A DNA stretch of 64,000 nucleotides from Escherichia coli (GTDB lineage: Bacteria > Pseudomonadota > Gammaproteobacteria > Enterobacterales > Enterobacteriaceae). The stretch lies in the NCBI RefSeq assembly GCF_011045215.1, contig NZ_CP049201.1; one strand, given 5' to 3'. Of the stretch, positions 49,465 through 50,352 are shown piece after piece. The notes beneath the pieces were generated by a model. The model saw only the letters and a list, made by a program, of their open reading frames with translations. It was not told the DNA's origin and searched no databases. The position numbers and the translations under genes are program-made. Each line of letters opens with the position of its first letter. Positions within the stretch are counted from its first letter, which is position 1.

Positions 49465-49894
49465 ATAGTTACCTCAGGGATAGGTGATTGCTATGTGATG
49501 CACCGCGAAACGGTTCGGGGCTTTGTGACACCCAAACTTTACCCCGGTTTCCCAGCGTTTCCTTTGTATATAATATCATTGAAGTTAATTGCGTTTCTCA
49601 GAAATCTTCTTAGGATGTGATTGCAATAACGGCAACACAGCGCACACATCGCGGCTGATCAGTGAGTATGAAGTGGTTTACTGAATTTGGCCGCCTGAAT
49701 CGAGAGACAAAATGTCCGCTCCTGGCACTAAGCAGAAGTTCCCGAACAACGTAAGCTGGCATATGCCCTCGTTCCTCCGTGGGGACTATCGATCTATTTG
49801 CCGGTTGTGTTTAAGCAATATCGCCAGCGGCGTGAGCTCTCAGTGCATTCAATCAAGCTCACAAATCACACAGTCTTTACTTTTTTTAGATTCC

Positions 49895-50303
49895 CTAATG
49901 GTTTCGCGTCATAGCCTCAGCCAGATAAACCTGAGCTGCTTTAGGGGTATATGCCTTTCCGAGCATAAAGGATACTGTTTCTATGAAAACTGATCGCGAG
50001 AGCACGATTAGGAGATCAGAACCTGATTTGACATTGATACTGGCTATCAGCGATGGGCAGTTCTCGAATACATCTGACAATCATTTACCTCATTAAGTTT
50101 TATTTCCAGAAGTGCCGTGATCCAGCACGAGTGCTGATAATCAATATCACTTGGGTAATGATTGACAAGTTCACTAAACAACGAGCAGATATTTTAAAAT
50201 TGCCTGCAGCTTCCACATCACCAGGCAGAGGCGTCAGACCCTTAGCACCATACGATTCATAGAGTAATTCCCAATATAGTTGATGCTGAATTTCTTTGTT
50301 CAT
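49895..50303 (-). pseudogene. degenerate or frameshifted ORF pair between the SIR2 and ankyrin genes
   Basis: Minus-strand ORFs 50100..50303 (67 aa) and 49895..50080 (61 aa) in different frames; no recognisable motif. Confidence 0.25.
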
Positions 50304-50352
50304 GTTGAGGCAGTATATTGAAACAATGAGAATGAATCACACATATAAGCTC

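Follow-up and report, generated by a model that had tools for sequence, protein, structure and literature searches.

The locus

We have studied a gap of 888 bp (positions 49465–50352) in a stretch of 64,000 nucleotides of the Escherichia coli contig NZ_CP049201.1; this whole stretch of 64 kb will be called the window. The gap separates a gene with ankyrin repeats from a SIR2-like gene, both coded in the minus strand, in an island which adjoins ypjA in E. coli. It is very probably the seam of two modules with separate histories: on one side the ankyrin gene with debris of an insertion sequence (IS), on the other side the remnant of a transporter IS which has no transposase and carries the SIR2 gene as its cargo. 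All features are collected in Table 1. Loci from other genomes are designated by L and a number.

The segment 47400–52100, with both genes and the gap, is present in 40 of the 5,426 complete E. coli genomes with 99.5–99.8% identity. A preliminary description of this DNA had reported a gap of about 890 bp with nothing but fragments of open reading frames (ORFs), and this was confirmed: the longest ORF in either strand has 93 amino acids, and there is no RefSeq/PGAP annotation between the two genes in the 40 complete genomes which carry the locus with at least 99% identity. The two minus-strand ORFs in different frames which it had pointed out also exist: 50100–50303 (67 amino acids, starting with ATG) and 49895–50080 (61 amino acids, starting with TTG). 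The G+C content of the gap is 0.41–0.47, above that of the ankyrin and SIR2 genes (0.30–0.40), which gave a first hint that the gap is foreign to both.

When the gap alone is compared with all complete E. coli genomes in a sensitive blastn search, it turns out to be a mosaic, with three unrelated classes of matches. Positions 49499–49674 match about 1,000 records with 76–86% identity. Positions 49709–50152 are found in a handful of chromosomes with 99% identity, in another context. Positions 50246–50348 correspond, with about 78% identity, to the 5' end of ISEc18, an element of the IS481 family.

Table 1. Features of the ankyrin–SIR2 region, in window coordinates
Feature	Position	Strand	Remarks
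Palindromic boundary site R, 28 bp	47920–47947		Site L in inverted form; right frame from about 47944 to 47589
Right segment of the transporter IS	47984–48100	-	Terminator and 50-bp right inverted repeat
SIR2-like gene, 450 amino acids	48112–49464	-	Passenger of the transporter IS; Pfam SIR2_2 (3e-24), PADLOC PDC-S25
SIR2 cargo-specific leader	49465–49500	-	GAGG ribosome-binding site; diverges from other cargos in alignments
Transposase-to-cargo spacer of IS1202-family transporter IS	49501–49674	-	Conserved
Junction stretch	49675–49710	-	Common only to the window and the Pantoea copy of the SIR2 unit
Palindromic boundary site L, 28 bp	49711–49738		CTTCTGCTTAGTGCCAGGAGCGGACATT on the minus strand; end of the left frame in all contexts examined
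Non-coding DNA of the left frame	49739–50234		Holds ORF 49895–50080; matches no family
Pseudo-ORF, 67 amino acids	50100–50303	-	Start of an IS481-type transposase running into non-homologous sequence
Solo left end of an IS481-family element (ISEc18-like)	50235–50343	-	Left inverted repeat, leader, ATG at 50303, about 23 codons
Ankyrin-repeat gene, 334 amino acids	50353–51357	-	Pfam Ank_2/Ank_4; conserved left frame of the variable slot of the island

Ankyrin and SIR2 genes without each other

The SIR2 gene is found without the ankyrin gene in E. coli strain WCHEC000837 (L004, 73% identity), where it lies at dif beside hipBA, and in plasmid pSUH1_A of Pantoea agglomerans (L009), with 95.3% identity over window positions 47925–49733. 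In the latter a LysR gene lies on one side of the SIR2 unit and a hypothetical gene on the other; this copy, too, has no transposase.

The ankyrin gene, together with about 640 bp of the gap, is found with other partners. A hypothetical gene, HEPN and Shedu come next in NCTC9104 (L012, about 95% identity). In L017, L018 and L020–L022 (about 96%) the following genes are an 865-amino-acid SMC/AAA ATPase and CBASS, while in L019 (about 96%) CBASS follows directly. The more distant L014 and L015 (about 81%) have a protein of 301 amino acids in this place. A piece of 444 bp of the left frame is also present beside the ars operon in strains 22AR0118 and B379. Altogether the ankyrin gene occurs with at least six different downstream contents, and SIR2 is never behind the ankyrin block in those other E. 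coli contexts.

Homology with the window stops at 49709–49711 in L012, L017–L022 and L005 (strain 22AR0118), and at 49723 in the relatives with 81% identity. These shared end points fall inside the gap, therefore the seam between the modules lies within it. The left module, from 51357 to about 49711, is the fixed edge of a variable slot in the E. coli island beside ypjA. The ankyrin–SIR2 pair is seen only in near-identical copies (at least 99% identity) of this one island; conserved adjacency across divergent loci, which would indicate a two-gene system of ankyrin and SIR2, was not found. The premise underlying the preliminary description, that the two genes belong to one candidate system, is not supported: each gene occurs without the other in related loci, with a breakpoint inside the gap at about 49710. 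The two genes are therefore neighbours by accident of insertion and not an inherited operon, and annotation should not count them as a defence system of two genes.

Other observations concern the left frame and its surroundings. In strain 22AR0118 (L005, positions 2050–5001), and also in B379, the slot between sites L and R holds an arsH-arsR-arsB-arsC operon instead of defence genes; the end of an IS3 abuts the frame at the equivalent of window position 50152. Upstream of the ankyrin gene, at about 51400–51960, the annotation of orthologous genomes shows a frameshifted "ATP-binding protein" gene fragment and an internal fragment of an IS3-family transposase. This is further decay, on the opposite side of the ankyrin gene.

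A probable transporter IS without transposase

The spacer which precedes the SIR2 gene has 76–86% identity with about 1,000 of 20,395 E. coli records and with 564 plasmid records. In those records a gene for an ISNCY transposase precedes the matching sequence, which directly follows its stop codon; this order is found both in plasmids and in chromosomes, the hosts being E. coli, Salmonella, Klebsiella and Cedecea. This is the case for L003, L004, L007, L008, L011, L144, L145 and L146, each spacer directly after the transposase stop, with cargos that differ. The intact transposase has 465 amino acids, with HTH and rve domains, and matches NF033594 (transpos_ISNCY_2) at 4e-143; it is intact in L008, L011, L144 and L146. 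Plasmid pEC0430-1 (record positions about 176111–179137) is one example with an intact copy of the element. In an eight-way alignment the conservation of the spacer ends sharply at ...CCGAACCG(C/T)TTCGCGGTG; beyond this point there are unrelated sequences which encode different genes. The cargos are SIR2 (window, L004 and L009), STM4504 with AbiJ_NTD4 and DUF7014 domains (L003 and L146), Shedu (L007 and L011), the zinc-binding trio of ECs_2282 (L008, L144 and L145), small ORFs with an RDD protein (L010) and, in the opposite orientation, a TIR operon (L143).

All-against-all blastn brought out another conserved segment, about 120 bp long, directly after each cargo: a strong terminator, followed by the right inverted repeat (IRR). 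The right segment of the window is 83–89% identical to the segment found after unrelated cargos in L003, L008, L010 and L009. Its intrinsic terminator lies at 48040–48077 behind SIR2 (free energy -22 kcal/mol, z = -4.4), and its IRR of 50 bp at 47984–48033, ending in ...CTTGACA, which reads TGT on the other strand. This IRR matches the left inverted repeat (IRL) of intact copies, with 40 of 50 positions in L008. In L003 and L008 a 5-bp duplication, AACAT, brackets the transposase and the cargo; the cargo is therefore inside the transposable unit. The window has the same organization, with a passenger, SIR2, between the transposase-side spacer and the IRR, as in the copies with other cargos. 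One colinear alignment takes in its spacer, SIR2 gene and right end, with 73% identity over 1695 bp in L004 and 95.3% over 1809 bp in L009.

A tblastn search with the intact ISNCY transposase found no remnant in the window, nor does the window contain a DDE transposase of 400–500 amino acids which matches the ISNCY/IS1202 model. It is therefore a remnant and not an autonomous member of the IS1202 family. Judging from its spacer, right segment and colinearity, the right module, from about 49710 to 47948, is very probably what remains of a tISKpn21-related transporter IS (IS1202 family, ISAba32/ISAjo2 subgroup), with no transposase. Between site L and the spacer, searches for an IRL or a transposase remnant score no better than in shuffled sequence. 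The transposase and the left end would have been lost by deletion before the SIR2 unit spread, because the Pantoea copy shares the same deletion.

The relatives which keep their left end are found at dif or dif-like sites. In L004 a distance of 5 bp separates the IRL from ATTTAACATAATATACATTATGCGCACC, which is E. coli dif in exact reverse complement, and in L003, L008 and L011 the IRL adjoins dif-like sites. The copy of the window is not beside a dif-like site, and its IRL is gone.

Some of these relatives have features of their own. The element of L004 (about 2500–5300 in this locus of the WCHEC000837 chromosome) has a SIR2 cargo and a transposase gene which is frameshifted and truncated; it sits between hipBA and a LysR gene, and similar matches are found in several chromosomes of about 5.1 Mb (H43–H50). 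A pair of different transporter IS of the IS1202 family is found in tandem at one dif-like site in L008 (6144–7600), L144 and L145, with nothing but the 5-bp duplication between them; a tandem arrangement at one site has been described for ISKpn21 arrays. PGAP labels the neighbouring sibling element as ISKpn21. In L011 (pMAK1, positions 2458–4000) and L007 the element lies at the published dif-like site of ISSen13 (CTT + AGTGCGTATAA GATGGA TTATGTTAAAT). The listed length of ISSen13, 1542 bp, would place its end about 30 bp past the transposase stop, where there is no IRL-like sequence. The real IRR is beyond the cargo in sibling elements, and the Shedu cargo of the L011/L007 type is cut by IS1. 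From these sequences, ISSen13 may have been delimited too short. Taken as a group, the ISKpn21-like transporter IS have at least six cargos in one slot, most of them with defence-type domains; ISKpn21 proper carries a DUF6904 gene.

The SIR2 protein of the window matches PDC-S25, a single-gene candidate defence model of PADLOC, with E = 4.1e-77 over residues 10–338. It also matches the models of ThsA, LmuA, Dsr1 and Dsr2, more weakly. In E24377A (L001, 6715–8067) the annotation breaks the orthologous SIR2 gene into two coding sequences, so this gene is frameshifted; the window copy is intact, with its 450 amino acids. Strain 81 (NZ_CP088131) and WG5 are examples of strains in which the locus is intact.

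The IS481-type stump and the middle of the gap

At the ankyrin end of the gap, 9 bp past the stop codon of this gene, there is a 24-bp IRL, TGTGTGATTCATTCTCATTGTTTC (50343–50320). It agrees at 20 of 24 positions with the inverted repeats of ISEc18, in which IRL and IRR are identical to each other. The leader and the start of the stump have about 78% nucleotide identity with the 5' end of ISEc18. The first 23 codons of ORF 50100–50303 encode MNKEIQHQLYWELLYESYGAKGL; in a tblastn comparison these 23 amino acids have 48% identity with the N-terminus of the ISEc18 transposase (MNKEIQHQLYWELLYES aligned with MNREIQQRLQWVKLYET), and the homology ends there. No partner IRR is found within 3 mismatches in the whole 64-kb window, and no frame of the gap has a DDE domain or a transpos_IS481 match in Pfam/NCBIfam. 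Members of the IS481 family have two terminal repeats flanking a DDE transposase gene; here the IRL and 23 codons alone survive. When ORF 50100–50303 is searched among 5.8 billion (5.8e9) proteins, it retrieves only tiny ORFs of the same length from the same locus, and in NCTC9104 it has a stop at codon 8. All this points to the stump of a transposase gene which continues into unrelated sequence. The stump is old, since it is found in relatives at 81% identity.

The rest of the left frame is a stretch of about 500 bp. Neither the gap ORFs nor the three complete minus-strand frames have a match in Pfam, NCBIfam or PADLOC. ORF 49895–50080 has no longer homologue and retrieves only itself, from the same locus, among the same proteins. 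No DNA match to 49739–50234 was found in the plasmid collection or the phage collection; the plasmid matches of the gap are confined to the transporter-IS spacer and the IS481-like end. A scan of 47000–53000 with Rfam 15 gave three chance-level matches only, all of them outside the gap.

The substitutions were counted at the first, second and third codon positions. With respect to NCTC9104, which is 94% identical in this region, they are 3/0/3 and 3/4/3 in the gap ORFs and 4/12/4 in a plus-strand ORF, with no excess in the third position. Substitutions in the ankyrin gene are biased to third positions: 10/9/23 with respect to NCTC9104 and 52/31/93 with respect to the relatives with 81% identity. 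When compared with these relatives the stretch of about 500 bp has scattered indels and no intact ORF. RNAalifold gives it an unfavourable covariation term (+4.2) and many broken pairs; for the spacer (49501–49674) there is no conserved RNA fold and no covariation support either. We have concluded that the stretch is old non-coding DNA and that ORF 49895–50080 is a chance reading frame.

Expression of SIR2 and alternative explanations

The spacer contains a block of 25 nt (49562–49586, AACTTCAATGATATTATATACAAAG) which is invariant in seven of eight elements, the Pantoea copy differing at one position; outside the block the elements are only 76–86% identical. The block holds an extended -10-like motif, TGATATTAT. 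SIR2 might be expressed from this motif, or formerly by read-through from the transposase gene. Its transcripts would end at its own terminator, which would make it an autonomous unit and not the distal gene of an ankyrin operon.

That the spacer is a promoter/operator of SIR2, with separate transcription units by design, is an explanation with a nearly even chance. It is compatible with a seam between two modules and would sharpen the view of how SIR2 is expressed. The near-invariant block and the strong terminator after each cargo speak for it; the opposite orientation of the TIR operon in L143 also argues against an obligatory read-through from the transposase gene. However there is no -35 element, a consensus scan reports nothing in the spacer, and the conservation could serve transposition instead, for example as a binding site for the transposase or a host factor. 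The preliminary description had also considered an internal promoter or a non-coding element. The latter was found: the 175 bp proximal to SIR2 are a conserved non-coding spacer of a transporter IS; a cargo promoter in it is plausible.

The same description had proposed that the ORF fragments are the remains of a decayed third gene, which would make them a frameshifted member of a defence operon ankyrin–X–SIR2. Two short ORFs in different frames, in the same strand as the genes which flank them, could suggest such a history, and the region is long-lived, with 81% identity in L014–L016. Nevertheless this explanation is already largely refuted and we give it hardly any probability. ORF 50100–50303 is indeed the stump of a gene, but this gene coded for an IS481-family transposase, with its start inside the inverted repeat of an IS, and was not a third component of a defence operon. 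ORF 49895–50080 has no relatives but itself and no intact counterpart, an outcome which the preliminary description itself took to speak against a gene remnant. There are neither family matches nor a coding signature in the substitutions. Alignment with homologous islands, which had been proposed as a way to find an intact middle gene, brought out none: the fragments are present in loci without SIR2, and SIR2 in loci without the fragments. Another explanation, that the 640-bp segment of the frame (50352–49711) is a non-coding RNA or a cis element needed by the variable slot, is improbable. The 77–85% identity kept in distant relatives and the constant end at the same palindrome would agree with such a role, but the segment has no Rfam match, its covariation is unfavourable with many broken pairs and scattered indels, and part of it is demonstrably an IS stump.

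The seam between an ankyrin module and a transporter-IS remnant is carried by the mosaic homologies, the common breakpoints, the occurrence of ankyrin and SIR2 independently of each other, and the geometry of IRL, IRR, target site duplication and dif in the intact relatives. Some points weigh against it. The window has no left end of the transposon, so that membership in the family rests on the spacer, the right segment and the colinearity with intact copies. The stretch of about 500 bp is 77–85% identical to that of the relatives with 81% identity (about 20% divergence), as compared with about 72% at third positions of the ankyrin gene (about 28%); it is less diverged, therefore a weak constraint on it is possible. 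A generic promoter scan calls no sigma-70-like site in the spacer, and the total it gives is below that for shuffled sequence. A hairpin at 49736–49715, which might stop ankyrin transcripts, is thermodynamically weak (z = -0.3). Since this hairpin is weak and no promoter is called in the spacer, read-through from ankyrin to SIR2 would be possible.

Palindromes at the borders of the slot

The variable slot of the island is limited by the 28-bp palindromic sites L and R, which agree at up to 22 of 28 positions across variants. They have arms AATGTCCGCT / AGCGGACATT and an asymmetric core of about 7–10 bp. In longer variants copies of the palindrome separate the modules: they are found in L012 at 6814–6885 and 8685–8712, and in L017 at 8343–8370, 11173–11200 and 13574–13603. 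The breakpoints of exchange fall in the core of the palindrome and a half-site goes with each module; the inner half-sites are present in the Pantoea copy of the SIR2 unit. A single ATPase module makes the difference between L019 and L017, and the hybrid sites which flank it are exactly those expected from a reciprocal exchange in the core GTGCCAG. From these alignments, the slot may be a cassette array delimited by 28-bp palindromes, and the pair L019/L017 looks like the insertion of a circular module by reciprocal exchange. If true, this would be a site-specific exchange of modules of neither Xer nor integron type.

On the other hand, the palindrome family is REP-like among ordinary genes on the Pantoea plasmid (L009/L147), with 6 strict copies in 50 kb versus 1.2 in shuffles, and such a scatter counts against a dedicated recombination system. 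The same holds for the loose palindrome pattern, which is widespread and REP-like in several taxa among the matches listed by a genome-wide scan. A double crossover in 28-bp repeats would also yield the same products. Recombination sites, REP/REPIN elements and terminators are all candidates for the nature of these palindromes.

Some identities were tried and rejected. As strong terminators the palindromes are not convincing, since their folding in the window is not superior to that of shuffled sequence. As XerC/D dif-like sites their arms agree, by eye, at only 3–6 of 11 positions in either orientation with GGTGCGCATAA-N6-TTATGTTAAAT, and the spacing of the dyad is different. Their sequences do not fit attC sites.

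Meaning of the SIR2 passenger

The gap itself is ordinary, IS debris and a transposon remnant, and the remnant is a new, decayed member of the known IS1202-family transporter IS. The window is a concrete case of a candidate defence gene as passenger of a transporter IS of this family, which targets dif/xrs sites. Its SIR2 unit has been dispersed without transposase between Pantoea and E. coli.

A bolder proposal, to which we give a low probability, consists of two linked readings: the ISKpn21-like transporter IS would be a dedicated shuttle of defence genes, and the slot of the island would be a cassette array delimited by palindromes. As a shuttle, such an IS may take swappable immunity cassettes, among them SIR2, AbiJ-like, Shedu and TIR, to dif/xrs sites in both chromosomal and plasmid DNA. 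The cargo may be exchanged between the spacer, which would bear a putative promoter, and the segment with the terminator and IRR, both of them conserved. If the passengers are seen as a swappable defence slot, they would add a small and widespread vehicle for the mobility of immune genes. In the searchable literature we have found no report which links ISKpn21-like passengers to defence-type genes swapped in a fixed frame of spacer and terminator.

Comparison with known systems

The IS481-type stump resembles ISEc18 in its 24-bp terminal repeat (20/24 positions), its leader and its first 23 codons; it differs by its size of about 110 bp and by having neither a DDE domain nor a right end. As compared with SIR2 proteins of the ThsA/DSR1/DSR2 type, no SLOG or other effector/sensor partner has been identified for the gene of the window, and its function is a predicted one.

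Hotspots of defence genes in mobile islands and satellites of E. coli, with conserved flanks and interchangeable cargo, are said to have been described by Rousset et al. 2022 and Hochhauser et al. 2023. The slot studied here is similar, with SIR2, CBASS, Shedu, HEPN and SMC/AAA ATPase as cargo between conserved flanks. Its peculiarity is that the flanks end in inverted 28-bp palindromes, with further palindrome copies between the modules.

The closest relatives of the right module belong to the ISAba32/ISAjo2 subgroup of the IS1202 family, which has TGT ends, 5-bp duplications and a distance of 5 bp between its IRL and the XerC arm of dif/xrs; its transporter IS members tISKpn21, tISKpn65 and tISRel10 have passengers reported as proteins of unknown function (Siguier et al., bioRxiv 10.1101/2022.12.17.520857; Harmer & Hall, PMC10132070). 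Circular intermediates have been documented for ISKpn21. The intact relatives of the window copy agree with these elements in their transposase of about 465 amino acids (IS481-related, NF033594), TGT termini, 5-bp target duplication, 5-bp spacing of the IRL from the XerC arm at dif or dif-like sites, tandem arrays, and a passenger between the transposase gene and the IRR. The window copy is unlike them: it has no transposase and no IRL, and it is not at a dif-like site. The similarity also has a limit in the sequence, as there is only about 66% nucleotide identity with the ISKpn21-type copy which lies beside the L008 element. A further difference is found in the passengers: in contrast with the published ones, of unknown function, those described here (SIR2/PDC-S25, AbiJ_NTD4-DUF7014, Shedu, TIR and the ECs_2282 trio) are recognisable as defence-type genes.

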